A stretch of 64,000 bases of DNA from Patescibacteria group bacterium (GCA_040384865.1 JAZKIM010000006.1:988-64987); one strand, 5' to 3'. Shown: positions 446 through 58,209, counted from the first letter of the stretch. Numbers and translations are program-made. The notes: a model not told the origin generated them from the sequence alone.

Positions 446-472
446 CAAAACCCGCTCTCGCGGGCTTTGTGA
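446..472 (-). terminator. Hairpin (aaacccgc-tctc-gcgggttt) just downstream of the membrane-protein gene; a second 13-bp-stem hairpin lies at 252-290
   Basis: Perfect short inverted repeats read directly; lies about 20 nt beyond the stop of the 494..1186 minus-strand gene. Confidence 0.4.
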
Positions 473-493
473 AAACAGAAATTTTAAAGAAAA

Positions 494-1186: not shown

Positions 1187-1302
1187 ATCGAATATTAAGG
1201 TTATAACCAGTAAGGGCGACGTCCCTCACCTTGGCTTAATTGTATCACGACGGTATTAATTGTTTATTAATATCCACCTCATTAAGAAAGGGCTGTTTTT
1301 GC

Positions 1303-1884: not shown

Positions 1885-1923
1885 GTATTCAATGTATCAG
1901 TTTTTGGACCTTTATGAAAGTGA

Positions 1924-1953
1924 ATGTCGCGGACGCTTACGCGCCCGCGACAT
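1924..1953 (-). terminator. Hairpin with a 9-bp perfect stem (atgtcgcgg...ccgcgacat) between the TrpD-like gene and the regulator
   Basis: Inverted repeat read directly. Confidence 0.35.
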
Positions 1954-1964
1954 AATACTGTCCA

Positions 1965-3005: not shown

Positions 3006-3103
3006 GATGTGAGGTTCTATTGGTTGAGGTTGAAATCTACCGTTACCCTACCACACTCATAACTTCCGTACAAAACCAATCTTAGATTGGAACAATACAA
3101 ACA

Positions 3104-3136
3104 AAAAAGACCCCTTTCGGGGTCATTTTTGTTTGT
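3104..3136 (-). terminator. Rho-independent terminator after rplL (aaaagacccctttcggggtcattttt)
   Basis: GC stem, tetraloop, T-run. Confidence 0.7.
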
Positions 3137-3139
3137 ATA

Positions 3140-3544
3140 TTATTTCAACTCAGCCTTTCCACCAGCAGTGTCAATTGCTGCCTTCAAAGCATCAGCTTCT
3201 TCTTTCTTCATTCCTTCTTTAAGAACTGAAGGTGCTGCATCAACGAGATCCTTTGCTTCCTTGAGACCAAGACCTAGGACTTCTTTGACTACCTTGATGA
3301 TAGCGATCTTGTTCGCACCAGCATCAGTTAGGTGAACATTGAAACTTGTCTTCTCTTCGGCTGCAGGGCCAGCAGCAGGGCCAGCCACTGCAACAGCAGC
3401 TGCTGATACGCCGAATTTCTTTTCAAGAAACTTCACAAGTTCATGAAGTTCAATAACTGTCATTTTCTCAATAGACTCAACGAGAGTCTTAAAATGAGAT
3501 GGTGTTTCAACAACTTCCGTTGTTGTATTCTGTTCGTCTGTCAT
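3140..3544 (-). CDS. rplL: 50S ribosomal protein L7/L12
   Basis: 134 aa; Ala/Gly-rich hinge and C-terminal domain KEAKDLVD...[19 protein letters not shown]. Confidence 0.95.
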
Positions 3545-15766: not shown

Positions 15767-16267
15767 TTAGAACGGAATGTCTTCTGGGTTGATCTCTTCT
15801 TCAGGGTATGAGATGGAGTCGAGCTGCTCGAGAGCATTCTTGCCACCCTTCTTCTCAGCACCCTCATCTTCCCCTACCGACTTCTTTGCTCCTGCTGGAG
15901 CAGATGTGCCGAACGAACTTCCTCCCGCAGATGCTCCACTTGGTCGATCACCAAACTGTACACGATCTGCTACTACTTCTGTTCGGTACTGTTTCTTACC
16001 ATCCTGTCCATCCCAGCTTCGAGTCTGCATTCGTCCTTCTACAAGAACTGAGCTTCCCTTCTTGAGGTATTGTGCAGCTGTTTCAGCCTGTCGGCCAAAG
16101 ACTACCACGTTATGATAATCAACAGCTTCCTGCTTAGCTCCGTTCTGGTCCTTCCAAACACGGTTTGTTGCTAATGCTAAACTTGTCACCTGAATTCCCG
16201 ACGGTAAAGCCTTCAACTCGGGATCCCGAGTGAGGTTGCCGATGATTATTGCTTTGTTTAGGTACAT
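15767..16267 (-). CDS. ssb: Single-stranded DNA-binding protein
   Basis: 166 aa; OB-fold; Gly-rich tail ending DIPF. Confidence 0.9.
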   Translation of the reverse strand: MYLNKAIIIGNLTRDPELKALPSGIQVTSLALATNRVWKDQNGAKQEAVDYHNVVVFGRQAETAAQYLKKGSSVLVEGRMQTRSWDGQDGKKQYRTEVVADRVQFGDRPSGASAGGSSFGTSAPAGAKKSVGEDEGAEKKGGKNALEQLDSISYPEEEINPEDIPF

Positions 16268-16285
16268 ATGTTTTTACGCTTCTAT

Positions 16286-16747
16286 TTATACCGCCAACTC
16301 TTCTAATTTCTTATCAAGTTGAGCTTCATTCACCACCCCTTCTGAATCTTCTTTTAACTTTCTGTCTTCTTTTGGTTCCACCAGAGTGCTTTCTTTTACC
16401 GTGCTGATTACGAGGTATCGTAGGATAGGTTCGAAGGCTTTCACCTCCTTTTCCAAATCACCGATCTGATCCGCCGCGAGAGTGAACTTAACCCATCCAA
16501 AGTACGCATTGTTATAGCGCTTCTTCAAGGCCTTTACTGTTTTCGAAATCTCGTATGACAACGGAATCATTTTCGGAAAATCTTCGGAAATGAACTCGCC
16601 TCCTCGTTTCTCAATCATCGATTTAAGATGAGAAAACTGGACAGGAACGTCGTCCTCGGCAATGGTTGGCACGAAATGAAAGCCAAGCTCATACACCTTT
16701 ACGTCGTTCTCCTGTTCTGTGTGGTCGATTTGCTGTTCTTTTGACAT
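16286..16747 (-). CDS. rpsF: 30S ribosomal protein S6 with acidic C-terminal extension
   Basis: 153 aa; YELGFHFVP core resembles S6; sits in the conserved rpsF-ssb-rpsR arrangement. Confidence 0.7.
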   Translation of the reverse strand: MSKEQQIDHTEQENDVKVYELGFHFVPTIAEDDVPVQFSHLKSMIEKRGGEFISEDFPKMIPLSYEISKTVKALKKRYNNAYFGWVKFTLAADQIGDLEKEVKAFEPILRYLVISTVKESTLVEPKEDRKLKEDSEGVVNEAQLDKKLEELAV

Positions 16748-16787
16748 GCGGAAAGGTTAACACGCCGTAGACTATAAAGCAAGATAC

Positions 16788-17651
16788 CTATTTGAGGCGA
16801 AACATCGAAAAAGCGTTGTCTACTAAGGCTTTTTTAACTATTTCAATATCAATCTTCTTTATATCAGCAATCTTCGCCGCTATTTCCCTAACATAGAGAG
16901 GCTCGTTTCTAGTACCTCTGAAGGGCACTGGTGTCACGTATGGACAGTCCGTTTCTACCATAATCCTATCGAGAGGAACCATTTCTACCAACTCCCTATA
17001 CTGCTTTGCAAAGGTGACAACCCCAGTGAACGACAGGGTAAATCCCCTTTCTAGAAACGCATTGGCTTCTTCCTTGGTACCAGCGAAGAAGTGTGCGTTT
17101 CCCCGTAATCTTCCCTTACTAGTGCTCAAATATTCATCAATTATTTCTAAAATTTCTTTGTAAGATTCACGGGCATGAATCATGATCGGCTTATCGAACT
17201 CGATAGCAAGTTCAATTTGCTCACGAAAAGCTTTTTTCTGTCGCTGAATCGCACCGGCAGCAAGATCAGCATGTTCAGGCAGTCGAAAAAGATCGAGACC
17301 ACACTCCCCGATACCAACGACGCGAGGATTTTTTAAAAGCTCACGATAGGCATTTTTATCAAAAACCTCCCCAGTTTCATATACTTTTGCTGGTTTCTCA
17401 GACTCATTTGGATCGACACGGGCAACAGAAAGTGGTGAGGTATGTATGGGATGAAGACCAATAATTGCGTAAACGCCTTCATCAGCTTTTTCTGCGAGCT
17501 CTACAACCTGTCTTGAAGTTTCCAAATGGGTTCCAACATTTATCATCCATACACCAGCTTCGTGGGCACGCTTAAGAACTTCAGTGCGGTCAGTATCGTA
17601 CGCGCCAAAGTTTACGTGGGCGTGTATGTCGATGTATTTTGGACGAGTCAT
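16788..17651 (-). CDS. tatD: TatD-family metal-dependent hydrolase (DNase)
   Basis: 287 aa; IDIHAHV..., His/Asp metal ligands in TIM-barrel pattern. Confidence 0.85.
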   Translation of the reverse strand: MTRPKYIDIHAHVNFGAYDTDRTEVLKRAHEAGVWMINVGTHLETSRQVVELAEKADEGVYAIIGLHPIHTSPLSVARVDPNESEKPAKVYETGEVFDKNAYRELLKNPRVVGIGECGLDLFRLPEHADLAAGAIQRQKKAFREQIELAIEFDKPIMIHARESYKEILEIIDEYLSTSKGRLRGNAHFFAGTKEEANAFLERGFTLSFTGVVTFAKQYRELVEMVPLDRIMVETDCPYVTPVPFRGTRNEPLYVREIAAKIADIKKIDIEIVKKALVDNAFSMFRLK

Positions 17652-17654
17652 TAT

Positions 17655-19106
17655 TTATTTCCTCAAAAACAACGCTTCTGTCGGCATCTTATTCTTCTTC
17701 ACTACAGCCTTAATCTTATCTGACGTTTCAGGCAGGATTGGATTGAGCATTCGACCGACGGTGTACAATCGGACAACAAGGCCTTTGATTATTTCAATCG
17801 CCTTTTCTTTGTCTTCCTTTATTAATTTGAAAGGTTGATTTTCTTGAATGAACAAATCCATGGCGCCAATTTCCGTCCAGATAATATCCGCGGCCTTATT
17901 GAGATCGAAGGATTCAAAAGCGTCTTTAAAATTCTGAGGAATGCTCTTTTTAGGAATGGCGACAGGCTCCGCGAGATTCATTTCAGCCATTTTCATAATT
18001 CGATTAGTGAGATTCCCCACTCCATTCGCAAGACCTGCGTTATACGATTCCTTAAAAATATCCATGGTCATTTCACCATCATCAAAAAGCGGAATGTGTC
18101 GAGCAACATAATATCGAAACGCGTCCTTCCCATATTCGTCAAGGAGTACCTTTGGGTCAATGGTATTACCGATACTTTTCGACATTTTTTTGCCGCCAGA
18201 CATAATAAGACCGTGAACGAGTATACGTTTTGGTAGTGGTAGGCCGGCCGACAACAGCATGCCCGGCCAGATAGCTGCATGGAATCGTAAGATGTCCTTA
18301 CCGAGTACATGAACGTCGGCCGGCCAAAACTTCTTAAACAACTCATCATTGCCAGTTCCATATCCAAGTGCAGAAATATAATTCACCAAAGCGTCGCACC
18401 ATACATAGATTATCTGCGAATCATCGCCAGGGACTGGGATGCCGCGGCCGAGAGTTTTAGCTGGTCTTGAAAAACTAACATCATCGAGGCCGCGACCAAG
18501 CTGTGCCAAAATTTCATTTTTTCTACTTACAGGCATCACCTCGAGTTCCCCCGTTTCAATAGCTTTTTTGATCCGCTCTGTATATTTTGAAAGTTTGAAA
18601 AAATAATTCTCTTCTTCAATAACCTGAGGCGGCTTGTGATGAAAAGGGCAATTACCGTCAACCAAATCTTTTTCCGTATAAAATGCTTCGCAATCCGGAC
18701 AATACAACCCCTTGTACGCAGACTTATATATATCCCCAACATCAACGAGCCTCTTCCAAACTGCCTGAGCGCCTGGCCAATGCACTTTCTGATCACTTGT
18801 TCGAATAAACTGATCATATGACGCTCCAATATCGGCAAATAGTTTCTTAAACTGATCTGTCATATCATCAAGGAACGGGCCAACCCCAACGCCGCGTGCC
18901 GCAGCTGTTTTTTCGATCTTCGCACTATTCTCGTCTGCCCCCGTCAAAAAGTATGTGTCCTCCTCCATCAGTCGATGATAGCGAGCAAATATATCGCACA
19001 CAACCATAGTATAGGCATGACCAATATGCAGTTCGCCATTAGGATAAAATATCGGACTTGTGATATAAAATTTCTTAGACATGTTTAGAATTATTTTCTG
19101 ATTCAA
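17655..19106 (-). CDS. metG: Methionyl-tRNA synthetase (short form)
   Basis: 483 aa; HIGHAYT and KMSKS motifs. Confidence 0.9.
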   Translation of the reverse strand: MNQKIILNMSKKFYITSPIFYPNGELHIGHAYTMVVCDIFARYHRLMEEDTYFLTGADENSAKIEKTAAARGVGVGPFLDDMTDQFKKLFADIGASYDQFIRTSDQKVHWPGAQAVWKRLVDVGDIYKSAYKGLYCPDCEAFYTEKDLVDGNCPFHHKPPQVIEEENYFFKLSKYTERIKKAIETGELEVMPVSRKNEILAQLGRGLDDVSFSRPAKTLGRGIPVPGDDSQIIYVWCDALVNYISALGYGTGNDELFKKFWPADVHVLGKDILRFHAAIWPGMLLSAGLPLPKRILVHGLIMSGGKKMSKSIGNTIDPKVLLDEYGKDAFRYYVARHIPLFDDGEMTMDIFKESYNAGLANGVGNLTNRIMKMAEMNLAEPVAIPKKSIPQNFKDAFESFDLNKAADIIWTEIGAMDLFIQENQPFKLIKEDKEKAIEIIKGLVVRLYTVGRMLNPILPETSDKIKAVVKKNKMPTEALFLRK

Positions 19107-23639: not shown

Positions 23640-25571
23640 TTATTGATTTACTACCTTGTCCTGTCCGTACTTATAAGCTGGATCTGTCTCAATCTGCGCA
23701 TCTAATGACGCCTGAATATTTTCAACTATCGTATCCGTAAAATTATCTTTCCCCGCCACTCGCTGAGAATTCACTATGATAGGTGATTGTCCGAACTGAC
23801 TGATACTTGGCTGGAAAGAAATCTGAAATGCAAATTCTTTGGCACTTGAATTGTATCCCGTACCAGCTCCAATCTCTCCGATCGGCCAAGTGATCTCGCG
23901 TTTGTCGGCATTATAAACAACGCCAGGAGTCACTGGGTCTATAACACCAAGCCATTTTACATACGAAGGCAGAGTTGTGGTAAAAACTCCATCCTTTACT
24001 GTATTAAATGAATTAGAAACACTTACCAATACGGTATAAGTAGAATCCTGATCAACAACTGGAGGCAGTGGACCTGTGTTCACGAAAGGACCAGCGGTGC
24101 GAACTAAACGAGTATTCATGACCAGTCCAGACTGAATCTTTATTCTTCTAATAACAGTTGAGGTAATTTCCTCTGGCACTCTATTTTCATTAAGACGCTT
24201 TGCCCGAATCGTTAGCTCTAGAGAAATTTCAGGACGACGGAATGTCATGTTGTTTTGAATACTTGCAGGTAATGACGCAAAACCAAACTGAATACGACCA
24301 ACCCCTCCAGGGGCAATTTCCTTCAAATCCTTTAAAGTAGTTCTGTCCCACAAAATCGTACTATCAATAGAGCGATAAAAACCTTCATCTCCAGTTACTA
24401 CCCGCTTGTCCAACATGGCACCGGTAATCTTTGCTTCCAAAATTACATCGTTTACCGGCACGTCAAGATTGTTTTGCCAAGTTATTTCGCCACCAATTGC
24501 TTCGCCAGCATCAACAACGACAACATCAGCTCCGTTGCCATTCAAAGAAATATCAGCACCAAGGAATGGTTCACGTACCGCAATACTGGCAGAAGTACTA
24601 ACAAATACGGATTTAATAACGGTTGTATTCTGGGGATCTTCTGTTCCTGCCGAAAAGTTAAATACACGCTCGTCTTTATTCTGCCCGATAATGGTACCGA
24701 CAATAGTAATCTCTCTTCGACCGCCAGGCTCAAGATCGCCAAGTGACCATGTATCAGTTCCTGAAAGAGGATCGGGGGTTGCCTTGAAGTATTTAAAACC
24801 AAAAGGGTAATCAACCTTAAGAAGCAATCCTTTAATGATGGAGGTTGAATTTGATACAAGCGTTACCTTAAATGTAGACACCTGATTTGCAGTCACTTCT
24901 CTGAGCGTATCTACAGTGAGAGTGACAGGAGATGAGCCGATGAAAATTGGATAGTCTTTAGTTTTGGTAAAGATACTATCTGAACCAGGCACACGGTATT
25001 CAAGCGTTACTTTAATATTTTTCTTTACATTTTCTTCACCAAACAAAATTGACTTTACTGTCTTGCGAATGGTTTGACCGGACTTAATCGTACCTACAGG
25101 GACACGATCAGTCACAAGAGAAGTCACCCCATCACCTTCCTCCCGAGTACCTTCGGGATATGTTACAACAAGGTCAGCTAAAATGAGCTCTGAATTATTA
25201 TCATTCCTTATATCAATATCGACAGAGAGCACTTCCCCTGCAGGGCTTGCAACGGGTCCGAGCATTTTTATGTCTATCTTGTCAGGAGAAACTACGTTGG
25301 AGCCATTGTAGAAGATATATGATGAAGCGCTGGCCGCAAGAACAAAAAAAGCGACAGCACCTATAAGTACCTTCTTAAAGCCAGCACCAAAACCTGTATA
25401 TTCATCATCCTTACCATATTCTACTTTTGGAATTTCCTGGTCACCCACCCATGAATTATTAACTACAGGGGCATGAGGATGGAGCCGACCGCGATGCTGT
25501 TTTGGCGGTTCCTCGGTCTGTGAATAGAGTTTTTTCTTAAGTTGCTCGATACGACTGTCGTCTTGTGCCAT
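23640..25571 (-). CDS. Large membrane-anchored extracellular hypothetical protein
   Basis: 643 aa; cytoplasmic N-terminus, single TM (LIGAVAFFVLAASASSYIF), beta-rich ectodomain. Confidence 0.45.
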   Translation of the reverse strand: MAQDDSRIEQLKKKLYSQTEEPPKQHRGRLHPHAPVVNNSWVGDQEIPKVEYGKDDEYTGFGAGFKKVLIGAVAFFVLAASASSYIFYNGSNVVSPDKIDIKMLGPVASPAGEVLSVDIDIRNDNNSELILADLVVTYPEGTREEGDGVTSLVTDRVPVGTIKSGQTIRKTVKSILFGEENVKKNIKVTLEYRVPGSDSIFTKTKDYPIFIGSSPVTLTVDTLREVTANQVSTFKVTLVSNSTSIIKGLLLKVDYPFGFKYFKATPDPLSGTDTWSLGDLEPGGRREITIVGTIIGQNKDERVFNFSAGTEDPQNTTVIKSVFVSTSASIAVREPFLGADISLNGNGADVVVVDAGEAIGGEITWQNNLDVPVNDVILEAKITGAMLDKRVVTGDEGFYRSIDSTILWDRTTLKDLKEIAPGGVGRIQFGFASLPASIQNNMTFRRPEISLELTIRAKRLNENRVPEEITSTVIRRIKIQSGLVMNTRLVRTAGPFVNTGPLPPVVDQDSTYTVLVSVSNSFNTVKDGVFTTTLPSYVKWLGVIDPVTPGVVYNADKREITWPIGEIGAGTGYNSSAKEFAFQISFQPSISQFGQSPIIVNSQRVAGKDNFTDTIVENIQASLDAQIETDPAYKYGQDKVVNQ

Positions 25572-26244: not shown

Positions 26245-28085
26245 TTACCCTTTCTTGACTATATTAAACCTGAGCTTCATTCCATCAATGTCAATTTCTT
26301 GAGCCCCTTCTCCTACTTTTCCATACTCAAAGACAGCAGCCTGTACAGCATAAGCAATCATGTCTCGATAGTTTTCAATTGTTTCCTTACCTACATCATC
26401 AGTTTCAATAGTAAGCACTATATAATCAGACGGAGAAAGTTCCTCTTTCTTTCGTGTCTCTTGTATGGCGCGCATAAATTCACGGACTTGACCCTCAGCC
26501 TTAAGTTCAAGTGTAAGCTCTGTATCAATTTGGACAAGACTTCCCTTCTCAACCTTTTTAACATTCAATTCGTCAGCAATAATTTCAGCTAATTCAACAG
26601 AAAGCGTTGTTGAATCCGCATATGTAAATGTTGCAAGTGGCTGACGAACTTTGATTCCCGCCTTCGAACGAAGCATTAATCCAGTTTCAACAAGCTTGCG
26701 AGCTGAAACCATGGACTCAATGAGAGTTGAATCAATTTCACCCGGTACTGGCCAGTTTTCAAGATGGACGCTTTCAACACCATCCACGCCTTTTACTTTC
26801 TGATACAAATCCTCCGCAATAAACGGCACGAATGGGGCCATCACCTTCGCAAGGGTAACCAATATGTATCGTGTTGTTTCAAGAGCTGCCTGTTTGTCTA
26901 CTTCATCTTCCGCCTTGAATCGGTCTCTAGACCGTCGAAGATACCATGTCGAAAGGTCATCGATAAAATCAGCGATTGGCCGTGAAGCGCGGTCTAGCTG
27001 ATTTGTATCAAGAGAAGTGGTGACTTCCAATATCAAAATGTTAAGTCGAGAAACCATCCATCTGTCTAACACGTGCTTACTCCCCGGCAATACTACCGAA
27101 GACTCCTCTTGAGGCGCATAGGTATTGTAAAATGTAAAGACATTCTCTAGTCGGTTGAAAAGCTTTTTATTTACCTCATCAAGAGCCTTCTCGGTGAAAG
27201 CCACCTCTTCACCACGAACAGCAGGAGAAGAGACAAGGAAATATCGAAGTGCATCAGCCCCATATTTTTCTACTGTAGGCATGAGATCGGGATAGTTCTG
27301 TAAACTCTTAGACATCTTCCGACCATCCTCACCAAGGATGAGACCGTTGACGATGACACTTTTAAATGCAGAACGATCAAAAATAGATTTTGAGAGATTG
27401 AGAAGTGAATAAAACCAACCTCGAGTTTGATCCAGACCTTCAGCTATAAAATCTGCCGGAAAAAGTTTACTATTTGTGGCAAGCATCTCCTCTTTGTTTT
27501 CAAAAGGATAATGATTCTGAGCAAAAGACATAGAACCCGAGTCATACCAAACATCAAATACTTCAGGGATACGGCGCATCGTTTCGTCAATATCATTTTT
27601 CCATGTCACTTCATCGATATATGGACGGTGAAGATCGAGTTCAAAACTTTCATTATGCGGAAGGGGCACAAATTTACATTCATGAACAGAACCTGTCGGA
27701 TCAGAAATATCAGTCCAGCCATGACGAACAAGGTCGCGTAAAGTCACACCATTTGCAATATTTATAGCTAAACGAAGTGGCAATCCATGCGTAACAATGA
27801 GAATGCGTGAGTCCACATGTTTTGCATCGATATCATAGAAAAATTCCCCTACGCGCCTTTTAACATCTTCAACAGATTCACCATCCGGCACCTTCTTGTA
27901 AAGATGTTCACTAATATCCTTAAAATATTCCGTGCGCTGACTCCAACTTCCCCCATCAAAATCTCCCGCATATATTTCCCGAATACGTTTGTCATACACA
28001 ATCTTCGTCTTGTCATAGCCAATAACCTCTGCAACAATTTCAGCGGTTTCTTTAGTTCGAAGAAAATCAGAAGTATAGATGACAA
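26245..28085 (-). CDS. ileS: Isoleucyl-tRNA synthetase, C-terminal part (remnant of histidine-phosphatase-like insert, then WYDSGS, KMSKS and anticodon-binding domain); reading frame is -1 relative to the N-terminal part
   Basis: IYTSDFLRTKETAEI...LIVTHGLPLR (PGM-family motifs) followed by DLHRPYIDEV, VWYDSGS, GRKMSKS; frame open upstream to 28110. Confidence 0.8.
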
Positions 28086-29633
28086 CTGACCGTGGCGCAT
28101 AACGAAAAATTCATTTCCTCGCCCCTCCTTTCGGATCTTTTCCTTTAATTCTTCAACTGAACTGATAAACTCAGTTTTTCCAGATGTTTCCCCCCTCCAC
28201 ACAGGAAGCGGTGATCCCCAATATCGGGATCTAGAAACTGCCCAATCGCGAGCCCCTTCAAGCCATTTACCAAAACGTCCTTCACCAATTTCTTTTGGCG
28301 TCCATGCAATTTTATTATTTTCTTCAACCAACCTATCTTTAAATTCGCTAACCCTTACAAACCATGACGAGGTGGCATAATTAAGAAGCGGCGTATTACA
28401 TCTCCAACAGTGCGGATACGAGTGCGTATACTTTTCTTTTTTAAACAAAGGAGACGGGACTTTCCTGCCAAGATATTTTATCACCTCCACATCCCCCTTC
28501 TGGTGATCATCAATTGGCTTTGCGGCCTGGCCAGCAAAGTCAGTTACAGTGGAAACAAAGAGGCCATCTGGACCAATGTGGTGAATAACAGGAAGACTTT
28601 CTTTTCGAGCAAGCTTCATATCATCTTCGCCGAAGGCAGGAGCAATATGAACAATACCTGTTCCGTCTTCTGCTGTTACAAAATCAGCTGCATAAATTTT
28701 CCAGGCATTAATACGACGCGCTTCAGCATCACCGAGAAGCGTGCCTGGAGTAACATAATATGGAAACACTGAAATGTATGATTTCCCTACAAGAGCCACA
28801 CCCTTCACCTCTTCAAGGATTTCATACCCAGCAGGTACACCTTCTTGTCCAGCAGCACCTACTCCCGCAAAAACTTTTGGTAATAAATTCTTTGCCGCCC
28901 AATATTTAATACCTTCAAATTCCACCCTTGCGTAATCCAAATCAGGATTAACCGCGAGGGCAACATTACCAGGCAATGTCCACGGTGTGGTTGTCCAAGC
29001 TAATACATAGGTTCCAGGTTCATCTATTAATTCAAATTTAACGAAAGCGGAGATATCAGTGATATCTTTATATCCCTGTGCCACTTCAAAGTTTGAAATG
29101 GAAGTCCCACATCGAGGACAATATGGCATGACCTTGTAGTCTTCATATACCAAACCTTTTTTATTGAGCTCGGCAAATGACCACATGACAGATTCCATGT
29201 ATGAAGCATCCATGGTGCGGTAATCATCATCCATATCAACCCATCGGCCAAGACGCGGAATAATTCTTTTCCACTCGTCGGCATATCTAAGAACGCTCTC
29301 CCGAGCTGCACGATTGAATTTCTCCACACCTACCTCTTCGATCTCTTTTTTGTTTTTAAGACCCATTTCCTTTTCGATCAAGTTTTCAATCGGCAATCCA
29401 TGGCAATCCCATCCCCATCGGCGAGGAACATGGAATCCCTGCATAGTTTTATATCGAGGAATGACATCTTTTATAGTAGTCGGCAATACATGTCCGTAAT
29501 GAGGTAAACCTGTTGCATAAGGTGGACCATCGTAGAATACAAAATTACCCTTCGGTGAAGGTTTATTCAAACTTTTCTGAAAAATATCATTTTCTTTCCA
29601 GAAAGCAAGGATTCGGTTTTCTCGTTCGTGCAT
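28086..29633 (-). CDS. ileS: Isoleucyl-tRNA synthetase, N-terminal part (HIGH region, CP1 editing domain, start of inserted RHG phosphatase motif); only junk translation beyond about 28086
   Basis: PPYATGLPHYGH, GWDCHGLPIE, VSRSRYWGSPLPVW, then NEFFVMRHGQ; the annotated ORF continues out of frame to 27849. Confidence 0.8.
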
Positions 29634-45178: not shown

Positions 45179-46084
45179 TTATGCCGCAGGAACAAGACGC
45201 ACGTGAACACTTCCCCTTTTCCCCTCCTTGATTGCCAGCGGCCGGCCATCAAGGGAAATGGGTACAATGCTGTATTTCAAGCCGCAAAAAAATTTGTCGT
45301 TACAGAGACGACCAATCGCGGCTTTGGTGGCTGTTATTCGGCGCTCCAGACCGATGTTCAGGGAATTGACCTTTCCGCTCCCCTCAACCTTCACCGGGTG
45401 TGCTTTGCAGTCCTCGTGCGGACAGATTATAAGTTCACACATACCCAGATTGGTCTTGGCGTAGCGAAGGTTCTCGCGGGCCCAGCGACGAAGCGAGCTC
45501 CATGCACGCTTCCTGGTTGTCGTCAGGTGGTAGAGACAACCAGGTATTGTTAACCACGAAGCATCCAGCAACTCAACCTCAATTTCCGTACGAACACGGG
45601 CGAGCCTCGGATCGATGCACCCGAGGACGCATCGATTAACCTTCCTACGCGGAAACTCGACAATTTCATTACCGTCCCGTGCCGTTCCTTTGGCATCCAA
45701 TTCGAGGCAGCGTACAACCGGTGTGTAATCCAATTTAGCCGAATGCCTTACCGACTTTGCCATTGCCTCGACCAACTCTCGCACCGCCTTGGTATCCTCT
45801 CCGTAGTCAATGATCACCAGCACCTCGGCTGGCCGATGTAGAGAAAACCCCATTGTTGAGATGGTCATCATCGCCTCCAACAGCTTTCTCCAGTGACGAG
45901 ACTTGAAGATCTCATTAAACGGCATCATGTGGCAAAGAGGGTCATATGCCCCCCTCACCAAAAGTTGAACGGCCGACGGGGTGAACCGAGTGCTCGGACA
46001 GATGACTAACGCCCGCGAATACTCAGCCTTGGGAGAACTAAGTGTTTCGGGTGGGTGATGAACTACAGGTGTTATTTCAAACAT
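45179..46084 (-). CDS. Hypothetical protein in a GC-rich patch; its C-terminal half has Cys/His/Cys motifs resembling the beta-carbonic-anhydrase zinc site
   Basis: 301 aa; LGCIDPR...ICPHEDCKA compared with beta-CA CxDxR...HxxC; GC visibly about 55%. Confidence 0.3.
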   Translation of the reverse strand: MFEITPVVHHPPETLSSPKAEYSRALVICPSTRFTPSAVQLLVRGAYDPLCHMMPFNEIFKSRHWRKLLEAMMTISTMGFSLHRPAEVLVIIDYGEDTKAVRELVEAMAKSVRHSAKLDYTPVVRCLELDAKGTARDGNEIVEFPRRKVNRCVLGCIDPRLARVRTEIEVELLDASWLTIPGCLYHLTTTRKRAWSSLRRWARENLRYAKTNLGMCELIICPHEDCKAHPVKVEGSGKVNSLNIGLERRITATKAAIGRLCNDKFFCGLKYSIVPISLDGRPLAIKEGKRGSVHVRLVPAA

Positions 46085-46218: not shown

Positions 46219-46737
46219 TTATCTTATACCACTATCAAAAGAGAGCACGACGTTTGTATATTGATCTTCCTCTACCACAACCTTTTGAGGCGAAAGTGCG
46301 GGCAGTATCCCCTCTCCACCAGCCACAACGGTGTAGTTTCCTGGGGCAAGCATAATACTAAAGGATCCATCTTTGGAAGAAGTAGCTATCATTACTGAAC
46401 CATACTGATTAAGGAATTTGATCGTGGTTACAAGAGGTTTATCACTGCATTCTTCCTCGCTACCCTCCTTCATCACAGGGCAAGTAGGCCCAACCATCGC
46501 AACACCCTTGATTCCTGATTTATACAACACAGGGGGTGAGTAACTCTCGCGGCGGGAATACGCTCGATCGGCCGAAGAATAACTTTTTACTGCCGCCTCA
46601 TTTTCACTATCATATATGGCCATGGTCTTTTGATATTCGCGACCTATAAAAAACACAAGAATTGGTACCGCCCCGAGAAGAACAAGAGCGCTTGCAAGTT
46701 TTGAATACCAGGTGACATTATTAAAATCTATTTTCAT
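46219..46737 (-). CDS. Membrane-anchored protein with carboxypeptidase-regulatory-like beta-sandwich domain
   Basis: Start probably MKIDFNNV; N-terminal TM; DGSFSIMLAPGNYTVVAGG pattern. Confidence 0.4.
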   Translation of the reverse strand: MKIDFNNVTWYSKLASALVLLGAVPILVFFIGREYQKTMAIYDSENEAAVKSYSSADRAYSRRESYSPPVLYKSGIKGVAMVGPTCPVMKEGSEEECSDKPLVTTIKFLNQYGSVMIATSSKDGSFSIMLAPGNYTVVAGGEGILPALSPQKVVVEEDQYTNVVLSFDSGIR

Positions 46738-46759
46738 ACGTTTAAAATTATAACATTGC

Positions 46760-47161
46760 CTATGCAATAATACTCGTGCAATGTGCGCATCGCTTTGCTG
46801 CGATTGGAATTTCACTCAAACACTCTGGGCACTTCTTCGTTGTCGGATCTGCTGGTTTTTCATTACGAGACCGCGAAATTAATTTATTAATAGGGGTAAC
46901 AACGAAAAAATAAATAGCTACAGAAACCAAAAGAAAAGATACTACGTTGTTCAAGAAATCACCATACATAAAAATACTGTCATTAAGAACAAACTTTGCC
47001 TCCGAAAAATCTGGAACCTTGGCGATTGCTCCTATAAATGGAGTAAGGATATCCTTAACAAGAGCATTCACCACCCCGTTAAAGGAAGCTCCGATGACCA
47101 CACCGACAGCTAAATCGACGACATTACCCCGGAGAATAAACTGTTTAAAACCTTTAAGCAT
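46760..47161 (-). CDS. mscL: Large-conductance mechanosensitive channel MscL with C-terminal CxxC...CxxC zinc-ribbon-like tail
   Basis: 133 aa; MLKGFKQFILRGNVVDLAVGVVIGASF; tail CPECLSEIPIAAKRCAHC. Confidence 0.85.
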   Translation of the reverse strand: MLKGFKQFILRGNVVDLAVGVVIGASFNGVVNALVKDILTPFIGAIAKVPDFSEAKFVLNDSIFMYGDFLNNVVSFLLVSVAIYFFVVTPINKLISRSRNEKPADPTTKKCPECLSEIPIAAKRCAHCTSIIA

Positions 47162-47214
47162 GGAGATGTTATTAAGTTTAGGCTATTCGTACCCAATTAC
47201 TATATAATATTTAT

Positions 47215-47793
47215 ATGAAAAACCAAGCGTATGCTGAACGCACCAACGAAAAGATGAAGGAGGTCCTCATGAACCCCGCAGCAGCTGGCCCTGAAATACA
47301 TTATTACATGATTCGCGGTGGTTCGAAAAAAAAGAATATCACCGTTTGGGAATCTGGTACGGTAGGCGGTGAATACATCAAAGCATATGGCCACTATCAT
47401 ATCGATGACTTCATCGAAACATACTGGGTGCTTGAAGGCCAAGGACTTCTCCTCTTACAGATGCGTAAGAAAGATAGCATGGGAAAATTTATCGATGACG
47501 AAATAGATTCATTCGAAGCTATTTCAGTACGAGCTGGTAGCAAGATCGTCATCCCCCCATTTGCCGGCCACTTGATGATTAACACCGGATCAACATGGCT
47601 CGCCACATCAGATGACAGTCCGGTTAATTTCGATGCTGGGGACTCTGCAAGTCAACCAGCTCATGCCGACTACGAACCACTTCGAAAACTGAATGGCTTT
47701 GCGTATTATGTTATCGAAAAGAACGGTAGACCTGAGTTCGTGAAGAACCCGAATTATAAAACGATTCCCGATATCACCCATCGAACAGCCTAA
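47215..47793 (+). CDS. Cupin-type glucose-6-phosphate isomerase (archaeal cPGI-like)
   Basis: 192 aa; AYGHYHIDDFIETYWVLEGQG cupin metal motif typical of cupin PGI. Confidence 0.65.
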   Translation: MKNQAYAERTNEKMKEVLMNPAAAGPEIHYYMIRGGSKKKNITVWESGTVGGEYIKAYGHYHIDDFIETYWVLEGQGLLLLQMRKKDSMGKFIDDEIDSFEAISVRAGSKIVIPPFAGHLMINTGSTWLATSDDSPVNFDAGDSASQPAHADYEPLRKLNGFAYYVIEKNGRPEFVKNPNYKTIPDITHRTA

Positions 47794-47797
47794 ATCT

Positions 47798-49345
47798 CTA
47801 AGAATTTACCTGAGGTTTCTTTGAAGTCTTTCTCTTTGGACGCTTTTTATGTAAATCAATTACCCGATTGAATAGATTTACATATTTTTTAGCAGATGCA
47901 CTCCAAGAAAAATCCTGTGCCATAGCACGTGACTGAATAGCTCGCCATTTCTTATTATCTCTGAAGTTTTCAAAAGCGCGAATTATAGCAATCATCAACG
48001 ATGATGAATCGAATTTTTCAAATACAAAACCTGTTCCTACTCCCTCGTCGGGATTATAATCCTCAACCGAGTCAGCGAGACCACCTACCTTGCGTACAAT
48101 AGGTACAGCTCCAAGTCGCATTGCTTCCATCTGCGTCAATCCGCAGGGTTCATATTTTGAAGGAATAACAACGGCATCTGTTCCTGAAAATACGAGATGA
48201 GGAAGGTCTGAATCAAATTGAAGGTGAATACCAACCTGAGTCGGGTTTGCTGCCTGCAACTCTTGAAAGAAAGTCATCAATTCATGATCTCCCTCTCCTA
48301 CAACGATAAGTTGTATTGGTAATTCCTGAAGCAATGTTTGAATGATAGGCTGAAGGAGATTAATCCCCTTTTGACTCCACAAACGGGAAACTATACTGAT
48401 CACAAATGTTTTTTTATCAATTGGCAAGCCAAATCGCTCCTGCAACGCCTGCTTATTTTTTAAACGCCTCTCCAGTTTTGAGGTTGTAAAATGTTCTGGT
48501 ACAAAAGGATCATTTCGCGGATCCCATAGGTCAATATTAATACCATTCAGAATACCGAACAGCACAGACCTCCTCTCTTTTAAAAGATCTTCAAGCCCTT
48601 CACCAAAATCTTTAGTTAGAATTTCCTTGGAATGATTTTCTGAAACAGTCACTATTGCATCCGAATATATGATGCCGCGTCGCAATGCATTTATTTTTAA
48701 TAATCGATTGCTTTCAAATGACGGAACCTCTGAATGCCCATCATCGTAATCCATCTCCTGCACGAACCGATGATTAAACATTCCCTGGAAAGCAAGATTG
48801 TGGATGGCAAGTAGCGACGCAATATCGGCAATTTCAAGGTCGTTCTTGTATACCGTTTTCATGTAATTAAACATATACCCCATCGGCCAATCCGCACCAA
48901 CGATTATATCTGGCTTCCACTCATCATGAAACTTAAGGAATTCAAGGACACCTCGAGACAACAAAGCCCAGCGCACAGGGTCATCTCCATAGCCGTACAC
49001 ATTAGCGCGCTGTTCGTAATATTCTTGATTCTCAAGAAAATATGTCGTAACCGGATCGACATCTTTCACCGGGGTATATCGTCGCACGTTACAAATAAGA
49101 TTCTTTGGACCCTCCTCATTATCAGTAGGCACCTCTAAATGCTCATGAATGAGTTCAAGCTCATATACATCAGGATCAATATTCAAATATCGTGGGATGA
49201 AGACTCGAGCGTCATGACCAAGTTTCTGAAGAGCCTTGGGTAGTGAGTACATTACTGCAGCAAGACCACCCACCATAGCAAAAGGGGCAGCTTCGCTTCC
49301 TACGAAAAGGATTTTTAATCCTTTCTTTGATCCAAAGAGTTTCAT
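47798..49345 (-). CDS. glgA: Glycogen/starch synthase (GT5, ADP/UDP-glucose type)
   Basis: 515 aa; N-terminal KILFVGSEAAPFAMVGGLA motif. Confidence 0.85.
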   Translation of the reverse strand: MKLFGSKKGLKILFVGSEAAPFAMVGGLAAVMYSLPKALQKLGHDARVFIPRYLNIDPDVYELELIHEHLEVPTDNEEGPKNLICNVRRYTPVKDVDPVTTYFLENQEYYEQRANVYGYGDDPVRWALLSRGVLEFLKFHDEWKPDIIVGADWPMGYMFNYMKTVYKNDLEIADIASLLAIHNLAFQGMFNHRFVQEMDYDDGHSEVPSFESNRLLKINALRRGIIYSDAIVTVSENHSKEILTKDFGEGLEDLLKERRSVLFGILNGINIDLWDPRNDPFVPEHFTTSKLERRLKNKQALQERFGLPIDKKTFVISIVSRLWSQKGINLLQPIIQTLLQELPIQLIVVGEGDHELMTFFQELQAANPTQVGIHLQFDSDLPHLVFSGTDAVVIPSKYEPCGLTQMEAMRLGAVPIVRKVGGLADSVEDYNPDEGVGTGFVFEKFDSSSLMIAIIRAFENFRDNKKWRAIQSRAMAQDFSWSASAKKYVNLFNRVIDLHKKRPKRKTSKKPQVNS

Positions 49346-49367
49346 AATGTATATCTATATTAGCAAT

Positions 49368-51770
49368 TTACTGTTGATTTGGAAAATAGAGTTTGTTTAT
49401 ATAATCCTTCACCATACGAGTGGCGGTATATCGTTCTTCCGTAAGACCAACAGTACCACGGATACGAGAAATCCAATTTCGCGGGATTCCGGAAGCGTCG
49501 CGCTCATAGAATATCGGTACTATTTTATTTTCGATCGTGTCATATATATCTGTAGAAATATGTTCATCATCAAGTATCCAACCTAAACCACTCCAGTCTA
49601 CTTCCCCCACCCAACCGTCTTTAGTGCTGCACTGAAGAGCTCCATTAAGTGCTGCCTTCATCCCACTAGTGCCACAAGCTTCGAAGCCGGGAATGGGGGT
49701 ATTAAGCCAAACATCAGCACCAAGCACCAACTCTTTTGCCACGTTAATTGAATACTCCGGAACATAGACGATCTTACCCAAAAACTCTGGCCGTGATACA
49801 TATTCTTTTATCCGTGCCACTGTTGCTTGCCCCTCTTTATCGTCCTTATGCGCCTTGCCGGAAATAATGAAATGTACCGGCCCGTCGGCTTTTTCAACAA
49901 TTTGAGCAAGTCGTCCTAAGTCACTAAATAACATTTCTGGACGTTTATATGAAGCAAACCGTCGAGCCCAGACAATGATAAGGGTGTTGGGGTTTAGTTT
50001 TACTCCTGTTTGCGAGTCAATGTAAGCAACCAAATTTGTGCGCAAAGTCATTCTTGTCTTCCACAGCTCATAATCATCAATGTCCTCAAGAGATAGTGTT
50101 GGCCACCCCGGGGTTCTCCATCGTGGTAAGTAGACCCCATTGGTAATAGGGATTAATAAGCTATGTGGATGAACCTTCTTTTCAAACTCAACATGGAGAG
50201 CGCTCACTCCATTCGCCCGCGACGCGCTACCAAGCATGAATTTAGTGGTTGAAAACATTTCTGGATTTTCCTGTCGGGCCCCAAGTAGAAAGAATTCTTC
50301 AAAATCAATTCGATGGCGGTTGAAATAATGTTTAACAATTCCACGCAGACGATCTCTTGAAAAGTTTATTCCCGCAACAGATAGGATGGTGTGTTTCGAC
50401 GCAACAATGTGCTGCTTCATCATCTGAACAGCCGCGCGAAGACTCATTTCTGGATGATCATGAATATACTCAGCAAATAGTGCCAGCGCTACAAAACTAG
50501 TATGACCCTCGTTGAGATGATATACCGTTGGATGAATATCTAATGTGCGAAGCAACTTTACTCCACCTATACCGAGTAAGAGCTGCTGTAAAATGTTAAT
50601 GCTAATATCCGACCCATATAAAGAAGATAGAATCCTCTGAATGTCACCGCTGTTTTTTTCAGTATCAGTATCAAGAAGATACAAACGCGAGCTTCCATGA
50701 ATTCGTTGCCATACTTGCAGACAAATCGTACTGTCCGCCACATCAACATTAACAATCATTGGCTCACCGTTTGCCAAACGTAGTAATCGAAAGTTGTGAT
50801 TTATAAGACTAATACGGTTCTCCGAGCGAAGCTCTTCCGAAGATGCTTCTGTACGTTGGTTATAAAAAAGACCTATGGCAGAAAACGGTATGCCTTGATC
50901 CCCTACTTCTCGAACAAAGTCTTCAGCAAGCATACCAAGCCCTCCGGCATAGAGGGGTAAACCTTGAATACCGTACTCTGCACAAAAAAATGCTACGGAC
51001 TTTTTTGATAATATCTTTTTTATAATTTCAGCGGTGTCCTGCGGACCTGCAATTTTCACTGATTCAATTCCTACCTGTGATGGTGAATAATCATTACCGC
51101 CCGGAAACACAGCGTCACCGACGAATAACATGTCCGAAACCTTTAACTCATAACGATCCAAAAGGCGTTTCAACCCCGTTGCCTTATTAAAACCTTTGGA
51201 AAGAAAGTCTATAGATGTTGTACCTCCAATAACAATCTCTATATCCGGTAAAAGAGGCTCAAGTTCAGCTTTAATAGCTAAGCGTTTTTTTTGATCAGAA
51301 TCCCACATCTCTTTTACCTCAATCGGCGCCTTTTGGCCATAAGCCGAAAAGGTTATCTGTGATCCTCTATCCTCGATGTAGTCTCCAAAAATTTGATGCT
51401 CGGGTGGAATATCATACCGATGAGAAGCAATGAGATCTTTTAGTGCAACGATAGTTTTTCTCTTAAGATCTTCTCTGAAGAGCTGCTCGTCCACTAGCTG
51501 CCACTCACCTATTTCAGCTTCATATTCATAACACTGACTACCGTCTACCGGCAACATAACAAGATCATTGACCGGGCCCTTCCAAAATGGCAAAAATTGT
51601 TTTTTAAATTGTTCAAAAGAGCCTCCTGAAATGACGACTACCTTTGCACGCGTCGCTAGTTGTGCCAGCAATTCAGCCATCTCTAATCCAAGAGACTGTT
51701 TGCTCTCAGCAAGAGTACCGTCAAGATCGAAAGCGATAATCTTTTTTACCTCTTGGGAAGAATCAATCAT
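49368..51770 (-). CDS. Fusion protein: N-terminal HAD-IIB phosphomannomutase-like domain plus C-terminal alpha-glucan (glycogen) phosphorylase, GT35
   Basis: 800 aa; N-terminal AFDLDGTLAESKQ and GDAVFPGGNDYSP (PMM/HAD motifs); C-terminal EACGTSGMKAALNGA PLP-lysine motif of GT35. Confidence 0.8.
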   Translation of the reverse strand: MIDSSQEVKKIIAFDLDGTLAESKQSLGLEMAELLAQLATRAKVVVISGGSFEQFKKQFLPFWKGPVNDLVMLPVDGSQCYEYEAEIGEWQLVDEQLFREDLKRKTIVALKDLIASHRYDIPPEHQIFGDYIEDRGSQITFSAYGQKAPIEVKEMWDSDQKKRLAIKAELEPLLPDIEIVIGGTTSIDFLSKGFNKATGLKRLLDRYELKVSDMLFVGDAVFPGGNDYSPSQVGIESVKIAGPQDTAEIIKKILSKKSVAFFCAEYGIQGLPLYAGGLGMLAEDFVREVGDQGIPFSAIGLFYNQRTEASSEELRSENRISLINHNFRLLRLANGEPMIVNVDVADSTICLQVWQRIHGSSRLYLLDTDTEKNSGDIQRILSSLYGSDISINILQQLLLGIGGVKLLRTLDIHPTVYHLNEGHTSFVALALFAEYIHDHPEMSLRAAVQMMKQHIVASKHTILSVAGINFSRDRLRGIVKHYFNRHRIDFEEFFLLGARQENPEMFSTTKFMLGSASRANGVSALHVEFEKKVHPHSLLIPITNGVYLPRWRTPGWPTLSLEDIDDYELWKTRMTLRTNLVAYIDSQTGVKLNPNTLIIVWARRFASYKRPEMLFSDLGRLAQIVEKADGPVHFIISGKAHKDDKEGQATVARIKEYVSRPEFLGKIVYVPEYSINVAKELVLGADVWLNTPIPGFEACGTSGMKAALNGALQCSTKDGWVGEVDWSGLGWILDDEHISTDIYDTIENKIVPIFYERDASGIPRNWISRIRGTVGLTEERYTATRMVKDYINKLYFPNQQ

Positions 51771-51814
51771 GGGTGTTCGCTCCTATTATATCCCAAATAC
51801 GCTATCATTAATAA

Positions 51815-52408
51815 ATGATTGAACAATTGTCTTCTGAAGTTTCGCCTTTCATTCTTACACTATTACTTAAATATAAATATTTAGTCCTTTTTCCCATTCT
51901 CGTTGTGGAAGGCCCCATCGTCACTATACTGTCGGGAGCCTTGGCCACACCCGAAGCGCACGTGTTTTCCATCGTTCCCCTGTTCTTCTTTGTTGTCTTC
52001 GCCGATCTCTTCGGCGATACGTTCTATTATTTGATAGGAAGGTACGCTGGTGAAAAGGTATTAAATAGGATCAGCGAGAAAAAGCATGTTGATTATCACC
52101 AAAAGATTACGGACTATTTTGAAAAATATGGTGGACGAACGTTGATTATTGGAAAAATAAGTCACGGTCTCGGATGGCCAGTGATGGTATTTGCAGGAAG
52201 TGTACATATGAACTACGCAAGATTCATGACATTTAATCTTTTTACCAGTCTTATTAAAAGCATTGTCCTGATTTTAATAGGATACTTATACTCCGAGAAT
52301 TATAGACAGATAGTTTCTTATTTCGGCTCAGTAAGCGCAACGATTACAATAACAGCTCTTGTTGTGCTACTGATATATCTATTCGTCTATTCGAGAAAGG
52401 TTCGATGA
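51815..52408 (+). CDS. DedA/TVP38-family membrane protein
   Basis: 197 aa; DedA-like hydrophobic pattern. Confidence 0.75.
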   Translation: MIEQLSSEVSPFILTLLLKYKYLVLFPILVVEGPIVTILSGALATPEAHVFSIVPLFFFVVFADLFGDTFYYLIGRYAGEKVLNRISEKKHVDYHQKITDYFEKYGGRTLIIGKISHGLGWPVMVFAGSVHMNYARFMTFNLFTSLIKSIVLILIGYLYSENYRQIVSYFGSVSATITITALVVLLIYLFVYSRKVR

Positions 52409-52546
52409 ACCCTATCATGAAGCTTTAATTAAGATTGCATAAGCTGTGCATAACCAGGTGGAAAACTTGTTGACATCATGTGGATGAGGTATAGCATTAG
52501 ACACAGGGAAGCACGGATTGTCAACAATCAACTAGAGGAAACATAT

Positions 52547-56904: not shown

Positions 56905-58209
56905 TTAAATTCTTTCCATTGTCACTAGATAAATTAACTCTCCATTCGAAGTGAATGATTGGATCAGGTCATTAGTTTTTACTGGCCACCCTGGCGTGAA
57001 GTTAAAATCCCGTACCGCGACACCGCAAAGACCTGATCTTGGATAAGCATCCGTCTCTTGTTTCATTGTTATCTTTCCATTGTCTACTGAGTAAACTGAA
57101 GTAAGCGGAGGCATTCCAGATATTGAAAGTGATGCCTTATCCATAGCCAGGTTCGAAACCGTCCATCTATACTTACCCTGATCATTGAAAAAGTAATACT
57201 GGTATTTTTCATGCAGAGCATCATCAGGGTCAGGAACCAACCCTGGCTTTATATATGAATAGGTCCGACTCCAGTCTCCGATAACGTCTTCAGCCTGGCA
57301 TAATCTATAATCTTCTTTACTCAAAACTATTTTTTGAGTATCCGTTCTAGGTTCAGTCGTCTCTTGAGAACTTGAATTCCCTTCGTCTATTATCATTCTA
57401 CAAATATCTGCAACAGTATTCCCGTTTTTATCCCGATTTAAAACACCCTCCGTCTCAATTGTTGGGTCAATTGTTAAACCTTTTATACACTCTTCTCTTG
57501 CCATAGCATCATTAAAATGATCGGAGCGGTACAATACACCCTTAGTTAAATAAGCCTGCGCGGTGACACCTGGCAACACTTTAGTGCTAGTAATTTCATT
57601 AAGCACCTCTATTGCCTTTATCTTATTACCACTGGAGTAATATTGTTGTGCTACAAAAAACTTCCCCTCCATGTTTTTATATTCTTGATAGTCTGTCCAA
57701 AGAGGAAGAAGGAATACTACAAATGCGACCAGAACTCCCCAACCAAAATGCTTAAAACCATTCGACTCTTTTACCTCTTTTTTCACTAGCTCAGAACTAC
57801 CGTTGTTTATTTCAGCAAAGGCACGATTAATCTTTTCAATATCCCATCCACCCTGCATATTTAATAATTGGATTATTTCATCTTCCCTCTTTCCCTTGCT
57901 CTGCTGATCTTTAATAAAATTCATCAGTTCCGGGTATATTGAAACTTCTGTTCTCTTTTTTATTTTAGATTTCCACCCCAAGTATATCCATATCGAAAAT
58001 GAAAAAATTGATGCGAGAAAAAAAGCACGCATTAAACCAACACTAACTACAAGAGCCTCCGATGTTCCATATAGGTCGTAATACAGCCAACCACCAACAC
58101 GAGCAACGATACCGAGACCAAGAATAAACCAGGCGGCCTTAATCATTATGTTTTTATTATAACCTAAAGTTCCATACTCCATCCAAGTTCGCCTATTTAA
58201 TTCACACAT
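56905..58209 (-). CDS. Hypothetical multi-TM membrane protein with large extracytoplasmic domain
   Basis: 434 aa. Confidence 0.4.
   Translation of the reverse strand: MCELNRRTWMEYGTLGYNKNIMIKAAWFILGLGIVARVGGWLYYDLYGTSEALVVSVGLMRAFFLASIFSFSIWIYLGWKSKIKKRTEVSIYPELMNFIKDQQSKGKREDEIIQLLNMQGGWDIEKINRAFAEINNGSSELVKKEVKESNGFKHFGWGVLVAFVVFLLPLWTDYQEYKNMEGKFFVAQQYYSSGNKIKAIEVLNEITSTKVLPGVTAQAYLTKGVLYRSDHFNDAMAREECIKGLTIDPTIETEGVLNRDKNGNTVADICRMIIDEGNSSSQETTEPRTDTQKIVLSKEDYRLCQAEDVIGDWSRTYSYIKPGLVPDPDDALHEKYQYYFFNDQGKYRWTVSNLAMDKASLSISGMPPLTSVYSVDNGKITMKQETDAYPRSGLCGVAVRDFNFTPGWPVKTNDLIQSFTSNGELIYLVTMERI

Follow-up and report, generated by a model that had tools for sequence, protein, structure and literature searches.

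A predicted phosphoglucomutase-alpha-glucan phosphorylase fusion in a glycogen gene cluster of Patescibacteria

The subject of this study is an 800-amino acid (aa) protein encoded in a 64,000-nucleotide stretch of DNA from a Patescibacteria group bacterium (GCA_040384865.1 JAZKIM010000006.1:988-64987), hereafter the window. Its open reading frame (ORF; 49368..51770, minus strand) joins a HAD domain resembling the alpha-phosphoglucomutase (alpha-PGM) PgmH to a minimal alpha-glucan phosphorylase, and we consider it likely that the product is a bifunctional alpha-glucan phosphorylase/alpha-phosphoglucomutase, which would take glycogen to glucose-6-phosphate (G6P). The gene stands beside two others, for a predicted glycogen synthase (GlgA) and a predicted cupin-type phosphoglucose isomerase (cPGI). 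All three ORFs were confirmed in the translations at the coordinates given by an earlier reading made from the DNA alone (the sequence-only reading), with the motifs it had quoted.

In the proposed reaction sequence, the pyridoxal phosphate (PLP)-dependent C-terminal domain would cleave alpha-1,4-glucan, either glycogen or maltodextrin, by phosphorolysis to alpha-glucose-1-phosphate (G1P), and the HAD domain would convert G1P to G6P by way of a phosphorylated Asp15; the cap residues R135 and K153 would hold the second phosphate of the glucose-1,6-bisphosphate formed as an intermediate. The neighbouring metal-dependent cPGI would carry G6P on to fructose-6-phosphate (F6P), a G6P dehydrogenase (G6PD) found in one relative would pass it into the oxidative pentose-phosphate pathway, and GlgA, whose gene follows that of the fusion immediately on the same strand, would supply the opposing synthetic step. 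Alongside the two enzyme activities, we infer a preference for glucose over mannose phosphates and a degradative direction in vivo; the joining of the two domains may also bring a kinetic advantage. The sequence-only reading had proposed that the fusion channels glycogen directly to G6P, of which the conversion itself is supported here and the channelling should be read as a conjecture.

Two domains in one polypeptide

The N-terminal domain (aa 1-257; 51000..51770, minus strand) carries DLDGTL at aa 15-20 and GDAVFPGGNDY at aa 218-228, and matched TIGR01484 (HAD-IIB; 68 bits against a cut-off of 42, aa 8-255) in NCBIfam, as well as the Pfam families PF03332 (PMM; 38 bits, cut-off 22.4, whole profile covered) and PF08282 (Hydrolase_3; 42 bits). 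The best solved relative of aa 8-255 was the Lactococcus lactis alpha-PGM 4BND, which aligned end to end in phmmer (E 2.5e-36, 128 bits), followed by eukaryotic phosphomannomutases (PMMs; E 1e-11 to 5e-8, 36-47 bits); the HAD-IIB sugar phosphatases YbiV and SupH appeared at E 3e-4 or weaker (at most 23 bits), and none of the specific phosphatase models of NCBIfam reached its cut-off on this domain. The AlphaFold2 prediction for aa 1-257, which drew on 35 sequences (pLDDT 92.4, pTM 0.84), resembled 4BND and the PMMs in its type IIB alpha/beta cap as well as in its overall fold, and a Foldseek search of the PDB reproduced the order obtained by sequence, with 4BND first (E 8.5e-28, TM score 0.79-0.80), then 22 PMM chains, and then IMP nucleotidases, SupH and trehalose-6-phosphate phosphatase at approximately 1e-12. 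PgmH of L. lactis was reportedly described by Neves et al. in the Journal of Biological Chemistry in 2006 (as cited in PMC8576529). The title of the PDB entry points to an enzyme specific for glucose.

For the assignment of individual residues we used human PMM2 as the reference, whose sequence as used matched PDB 7O0C exactly, and took from the literature the roles of its catalytic residues and of the clasp and cap residues R21, R134 and R141, which bind the second phosphate of the bisphosphate (PMC4263888). PMM2 D12, D14, K189, D209 and D217 correspond to D15, D17, K196, D219 and D227 of the fusion, none of which varies among 37 fusion domains; the HAD core as a whole (D15, D17, T19, S48, K196, D219 and D227) is invariant in 35-37 fusion domains and retained by 182-185 of the 185 family members. 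Residues K24, R135, Q146 and K153 occupy the positions of PMM2 R21, R123, R134 and R141, R123 being a nearby residue. The same K/R/Q/K pattern is found in 4BND (K17/R128/Q139/K146), in contrast to PMM2, and 164-184 of 185 family members keep it, so that the residues predicted to bind the distal phosphate are conserved. Taken together, the rank of 4BND, the order of the fold matches and the shared cap and clasp pattern place the domain, as far as sequence and modelled fold can tell, in the PgmH-type alpha-PGM subfamily of PMM-like HAD-IIB enzymes, and it appears to keep features that a mutase would need and a plain phosphatase would not. The sequence-only reading had described a eukaryote-type PMM and had noted that a better score against sugar phosphatases would change the proposed chemistry. 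Membership of the PMM-like HAD-IIB family stands, with PgmH-type alpha-PGM as the better term, and the phosphatases ranked well behind (E above 1e-4, against 2.5e-36 for 4BND and about 1e-11 for the PMMs); with an alpha-PGM as nearest characterised relative, the proposed conversion of G1P to G6P becomes both more specific and more likely.

The remaining ~540 residues (aa 258-800; 49368..50999, minus strand) matched the alpha-glucan phosphorylase family TIGR02094 over positions 1-599 of its 600-position profile (457 bits, cut-off 192, aa 259-796) and PF00343 with 66 bits, and contain the motif EACGTSGMKAALNGA at aa 697-711, in keeping with the GT35 phosphorylase anticipated by the sequence-only reading. 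The closest solved protein, which is also the best fold match, is the Segatella copri glycogen phosphorylase ScGP (9L6I; 323 bits), a 'clade 2' enzyme that has been assayed in both directions and whose catalytic residues have been described (PMC12912991). ScGP H316, R507, R508, K513 and K609, the PLP-binding lysine, align to H460, R603, R604, K609 and K705 of the fusion, all invariant or at least 90% conserved among 45 fused and unfused relatives. The alignment spans only residues 109-710 of the 852 in ScGP, leaving its first ~108 and last ~140 residues without a counterpart in the fusion; unfused relatives of 540-560 aa show the same minimal core, likewise without accessory domains. No Pfam match to PF11897 (DUF3417) was found in the fusion; among the domain models that the sequence-only reading had listed, PF03332, PF00343 and, in the cupin protein, PF06560 were recovered and this one was not. 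DUF3417 and the C-terminal beta-sheet domain are therefore accessory rather than defining for the TIGR02094 family, and the C-terminal part of the protein is predicted to be a minimal 'clade 2' phosphorylase core with intact catalytic residues.

A full-length AlphaFold2 model (pLDDT 90.1, pTM 0.87) shows no disordered linker, the last HAD helix (aa 243-254) continuing directly into the first phosphorylase strand (aa 259-262), which suggests that the geometry between the two domains may be fixed. No PDB chain in the fold search covered both halves (TMq at most 0.62). The public protein MES3005909.1, from a Patescibacteria group bacterium, is 100% identical to the 800-aa product and is annotated 'MAG: alpha-glucan family phosphorylase [Patescibacteria group bacterium]', a name that conceals the N-terminal domain.

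Recurrence of the fusion and its gene neighbourhood

Database searches for the same fusion, as the sequence-only reading had suggested, identified ~38 cluster representatives that carry both domains, with 37-77% identity to the query. That two genes had been joined artificially, by a frameshift or in assembly, was rejected on the strength of these ~38 orthologues with the same junction, together with the lack of a linker, the pTM of 0.87 and the identical NCBI protein. Every N-terminal-type fusion with a complete N-terminus has the DxD[GN]T motif, and all fusions have GTSG[MI]K. Named carriers are metagenome-assembled genomes (MAGs) of Patescibacteria or Paceibacterota, with one truncated fusion in a Saccharibacteria MAG. 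The latter (L007, truncated by the contig end) was the only fusion among the matches listed in a profile scan of genome contigs with the fusion alignment; those matches were mostly unfused TIGR02094 phosphorylases from many phyla, and the scan is uninformative on the taxonomy of the fusion.

Two representatives, P0048 and P0146, which are 62% identical to each other, have the opposite order, with the phosphorylase preceding the mutase. They separate from the N-terminal fusions in a neighbour-joining tree of the phosphorylase domain, where unfused phosphorylases fall between the N-terminal fusions; these trees are distance-based and lack support values, and were used for grouping only. The opposite order in a separate lineage means that mutase and phosphorylase were fused at least twice, and further gains or losses among the N-terminal fusions are possible. 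Separately, one phosphorylase of the unfused clade (P0061, 897 aa, from a JGI metagenome) has a C-terminal phosphoglycerate kinase domain (PF00162), a further case in which a phosphorylase is unexpectedly joined to an enzyme of glycolysis.

For the HAD domain itself, 1.84 billion cluster representatives were searched exhaustively, giving 396 relatives at E ≤ 1e-30, most of them free-standing proteins of ~250 aa, the form in which the PgmH-type subfamily is widespread among bacteria. Where it is joined to other domains, the partners are a GT35 phosphorylase releasing G1P (P0146 and P0048, HAD domain C-terminal), a GH130 mannoside phosphorylase releasing hexose-1-phosphate (P0121, 56% identical to the query domain), a mannose-6-phosphate isomerase (PMI) cupin of family PF01050 using hexose-6-phosphate (P0256, P0216, P0144 and P0222) and a cytidylyltransferase-like domain (P0267), nucleotidyltransferases typically using sugar-1-phosphates. 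Two partners, a histidine phosphatase-family domain (His_Phos_1; P0156) and a Gmad2 immunoglobulin-like domain (P0137), have no obvious link to hexose phosphates. All the others make or plausibly use hexose-1-phosphate or hexose-6-phosphate, the pattern expected of a mutase that interconverts the two. Together these proteins make up a natural family of mutase fusions, of which we found no description.

We compared the gene neighbourhoods of nine related loci, fused or unfused, with that of the window. A glgA gene adjoins the phosphorylase gene in 9/9 of them, and a gene of the branching-enzyme-type GH57 family is found in seven (L001, L003, L004, L005, L086, L087 and L088). Four loci with N-terminal fusions (L001 with P0005, L003 with P0016, L086 with P0009 and L087 with P0034) have the order fusion, GlgA, GH57, followed after 0-6 kb by a cPGI gene on the other strand. 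At L088, which encodes the reverse-order fusion P0048, the genes for cPGI, GlgA, GH57 and the phosphorylase-mutase follow one another in the same direction. The unfused relatives L004 and L005 show GlgP, GlgA and GH57, with cPGI also present in L004, and no separate pgmH-like or HAD-IIB gene lies within 10 kb of either phosphorylase. The most divergent N-terminal fusion locus, that of P0043, has glgA followed within 3 kb by the genes for G6PD and 6-phosphogluconate dehydrogenase, which replace GH57 and cPGI. Both these neighbours and cPGI start from G6P, and the arrangement suggests that here the G6P obtained from glycogen enters the oxidative pentose-phosphate pathway. The window shares the order fusion, GlgA, cPGI with L089, whose fusion P0003 is 77% identical, and GH57 is missing at both loci; a survey of the 20 largest of the remaining window ORFs did not find it either. 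A GlgC-like or other NTP-transferase gene was found neither in the nine related loci nor among those 20 ORFs; the same 20 ORFs include no canonical phosphoglucomutase (PGM). The conserved synteny and the independent reverse-order fusion support a functional link between phosphorylase and mutase and, more widely, between the genes of the cluster, as the sequence-only reading had supposed. As a separate observation, the ribonucleotide reductase and RecA encoded in L005 (Harrisonbacteria; 1-3383 and 15822-17942) carry intein and LAGLIDADG domains.

Weighing of alternative functions

Sequence, fold, cap residues and the nature of the fusion partners all led us to reject a sugar phosphatase as the identity of the N-terminal domain. 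A hexose-phosphate phosphatase at this position, which would release free glucose from glycogen and recycle the phosphate consumed by the phosphorylase, is in our view unlikely. It would fit a Hydrolase_3 score as high as the PMM score, weak matches to S6PP, Cof and SPP, and the name 'HAD superfamily hydrolase' that JGI gives to one fusion member. However, with no specific phosphatase model at its cut-off, the solved phosphatases lie at least 25 orders of magnitude behind 4BND by sequence and about 15 by fold, and the residues for the second phosphate, R135, K153 and K24, are essentially invariant. The neighbouring cPGI and G6PD moreover consume G6P, not glucose, and fusion partners such as PMI require a 6-phosphate product. 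To regard the domain instead as a phosphomannomutase, or as a module with a regulatory or otherwise uncoupled role, attached to the phosphorylase for co-expression alone, would agree with PMM being the named Pfam match and with the occurrence of the 56%-identical domain on a mannoside phosphorylase and of others on PMI; we judge it highly improbable, as the domain is nearer to the glucose-acting 4BND than to any PMM, all neighbours are enzymes of glucose and glycogen, and its having been joined to the same partner twice independently points to coupled consecutive reactions.

The direction of the pathway could also be reversed, the mutase turning G6P into G1P and the phosphorylase elongating or priming alpha-glucan to offset a missing GlgC. 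The lack of an NTP-transferase gene in the loci and ORFs surveyed, the GlgA of the window without its KxGGL lysine (see below) and the reversibility of phosphorylases in vitro, ScGP having been assayed both ways (PMC12912991), are all compatible with such a mainly synthetic role, which we nevertheless hold to be very unlikely. GlgA is kept next to the phosphorylase in every locus, and a GlgC may lie elsewhere in a genome of which 64 kb were seen. In addition, the cellular ratio of inorganic phosphate to G1P normally pushes GT35 enzymes towards degradation.

Several points weigh against a bifunctional enzyme that takes glycogen to G6P, the reading that we prefer. The nearest characterised mutase, 4BND, is only 32-38% identical to the N-terminal domain, and the activities are predictions throughout the fusion family. 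A side activity as a phosphatase is possible in this HAD-IIB family, PMM1 being reported to hydrolyse hexose bisphosphates (PMC5736207). The sugar specificity of the subfamily is not fixed, given that P0121, among the closest relatives of the HAD domain, is joined to GH130. Finally, fusion is not obligatory, since the closely related unfused phosphorylases P0013 and P0021 belong to the same gene cluster and have no HAD gene beside them.

The cluster in the window and its relation to known systems

The predicted GlgA glycogen/starch synthase (GT5; 515 aa; 47798..49345, minus strand) was identified by TIGR02095 (472 bits, cut-off 328) and PF08323 (208 bits), in line with its conserved synteny and with the identity first given to it. 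At its N-terminus, APFAMVGGLAAV, the sequence AMVGGL stands in place of KxGGL, with methionine at the position of the lysine, which we take to be K15 of E. coli GlgA and to bind the nucleotide-sugar. Its closest relative, the GlgA of L089 (8724-10268), reads AMAGGL, and K or R occupies this position in six further syntenic GlgAs; the sub-clade with the altered motif (window and L089) is also the one without GH57 in its cluster. The 'compact glycogen cycle' of the sequence-only reading is accordingly borne out for the predicted phosphorylase, mutase, cPGI and GlgA, and is incomplete in the window, where neither GH57 nor GlgC was found among the ORFs surveyed and GlgA has Met for the KxGGL Lys.

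The cupin protein (192 aa; 47215..47793, plus strand), with GHYH at aa 59-62, matched PF06560 (GPI; 68 bits, cut-off 20.7) and the cPGIs of Thermococcus litoralis and Pyrococcus furiosus at E 1e-7 to 8e-7, without matching an NCBIfam equivalog. Its H60, H62, E68 and the histidine of FAGH align to the archaeal metal ligands, presumably H88, H90, E97 and H136 in the P. furiosus enzyme, and are kept in 8/8 syntenic homologues. It is predicted to be a member of the cPGI family with all four metal ligands, which upholds its earlier placement in the archaeal family.

The fusion gene and glgA, 22 nt apart on the same strand with glgA downstream, probably form one operon, whereas cPGI is not co-transcribed with them, as it is convergent with glgA across a 4-nt gap. 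The region upstream of the fusion gene (51771..51790, minus strand), read directly from the sequence, contains an AGGAG Shine-Dalgarno element 9 nt 5' of the ATG, preceded by a TATAAT-like hexamer, and a divergent dedA-like gene lies on its other side. A promoter and terminator scan of 46700-52500 gave no excess over shuffled expectation, and we therefore take the Shine-Dalgarno element alone, not the hexamer, as meaningful. Rfam and tRNA scans of the window detected three tRNAs only, all distant from the glycogen module. Elsewhere in the window, the isoleucyl-tRNA synthetase (26245-29633, minus strand) is divided between two overlapping ORFs, 27849-29633 and 26245-27999, the second with a partial match to His_Phos_1 (histidine phosphatase) at its start, which could reflect a frameshift, the splitting of the gene or the insertion of a domain. 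The ORFs 23640-25571 (643 aa) and 56905-58209 (434 aa) have no Pfam match. Nor is one on record for a 301-aa ORF at 45179-46084 (minus strand) or for a gene of similar size (306 aa) that occupies the matching position of L089, between MscL and PAP2.

Each component belongs to a known family, namely PgmH-type alpha-PGM, TIGR02094 'clade 2', cPGI and GlgA; it is their fusion, and not the chemistry, that appears new. With PgmH (4BND) the fusion shares the HAD-IIB fold (TM score 0.8), the four HAD motifs and the K/R/Q/K cap and clasp, although PgmH is free-standing (~252 aa) and the fused domain is joined to a phosphorylase without a linker. PMM1 and PMM2 (PF03332) have the same fold and catalytic Asp-Asp-Lys-Asp set and likewise act as mutases through a hexose bisphosphate, but the similarity is weaker (E ~1e-11), PMM2 R134, R141 and the clasp R21 are Q, K and K in the fusion, and the substrates of PMMs are mannose phosphates, on the way to GDP-mannose. 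ScGP has the catalytic core with H, RR, K and the PLP lysine in common with the fusion; it possesses an extra C-terminal beta-sheet domain and an alpha-helical domain for pentamer formation (PMC12912991), in place of which the fusion has an N-terminal mutase domain. The archaeal cPGIs (P. furiosus 1QXJ and T. litoralis 1J3P; PF06560) share the cupin fold, the His-His-Glu-His ligands and the H-x-Y phosphate-site motif with the window protein, which differs in its shorter N-terminus, two insertions, weak match (E ~1e-7) and bacterial host. Consecutive or related alpha-glucan steps are also united in one polypeptide in TreS-Mak (Pep2) and GlgA-GlgB, with different enzymes; the available text of the comprehensive 2024 Chem Rev review of prokaryotic alpha-glucan enzymes from which these examples come lists no phosphorylase-phosphoglucomutase fusion (PMC11046441), and our full-text literature searches found no description of a natural one.

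It is conceivable, though we would not expect it, that the fusion is a channelled, rigid two-site machine that evolved at least twice in Patescibacteria, once in each order, with the PgmH domain as the sole PGM of these reduced genomes, and that the sub-clade of the window, having lost GH57 and the KxGGL lysine of GlgA, may be shifting from glycogen storage to the scavenging of host-derived or environmental alpha-glucans. If so, all carbon passing from alpha-glucan into central metabolism, or the opposite way, would be controlled by the fusion. On the reading that we prefer, the bifunctional enzyme could serve as a natural test system for whether enzyme fusion yields substrate channelling, and as a compact single-polypeptide catalyst from starch to G6P for cell-free biomanufacturing. 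The reactions of glycogen phosphorylase and phosphoglucomutase follow one another, and the literature consulted treats the two as separate proteins; their recurrent, convergently evolved fusion suggests that selection in ultra-small cells favoured the coupling of both steps. The HAD-type (PgmH) mutase is a candidate for the phosphoglucomutase used in glycogen utilisation by these Patescibacteria, hidden so far by the annotation 'alpha-glucan family phosphorylase', and for metabolic reconstruction of the candidate phyla radiation it would provide a route from glycogen through G6P to F6P or to the oxidative pentose-phosphate pathway.

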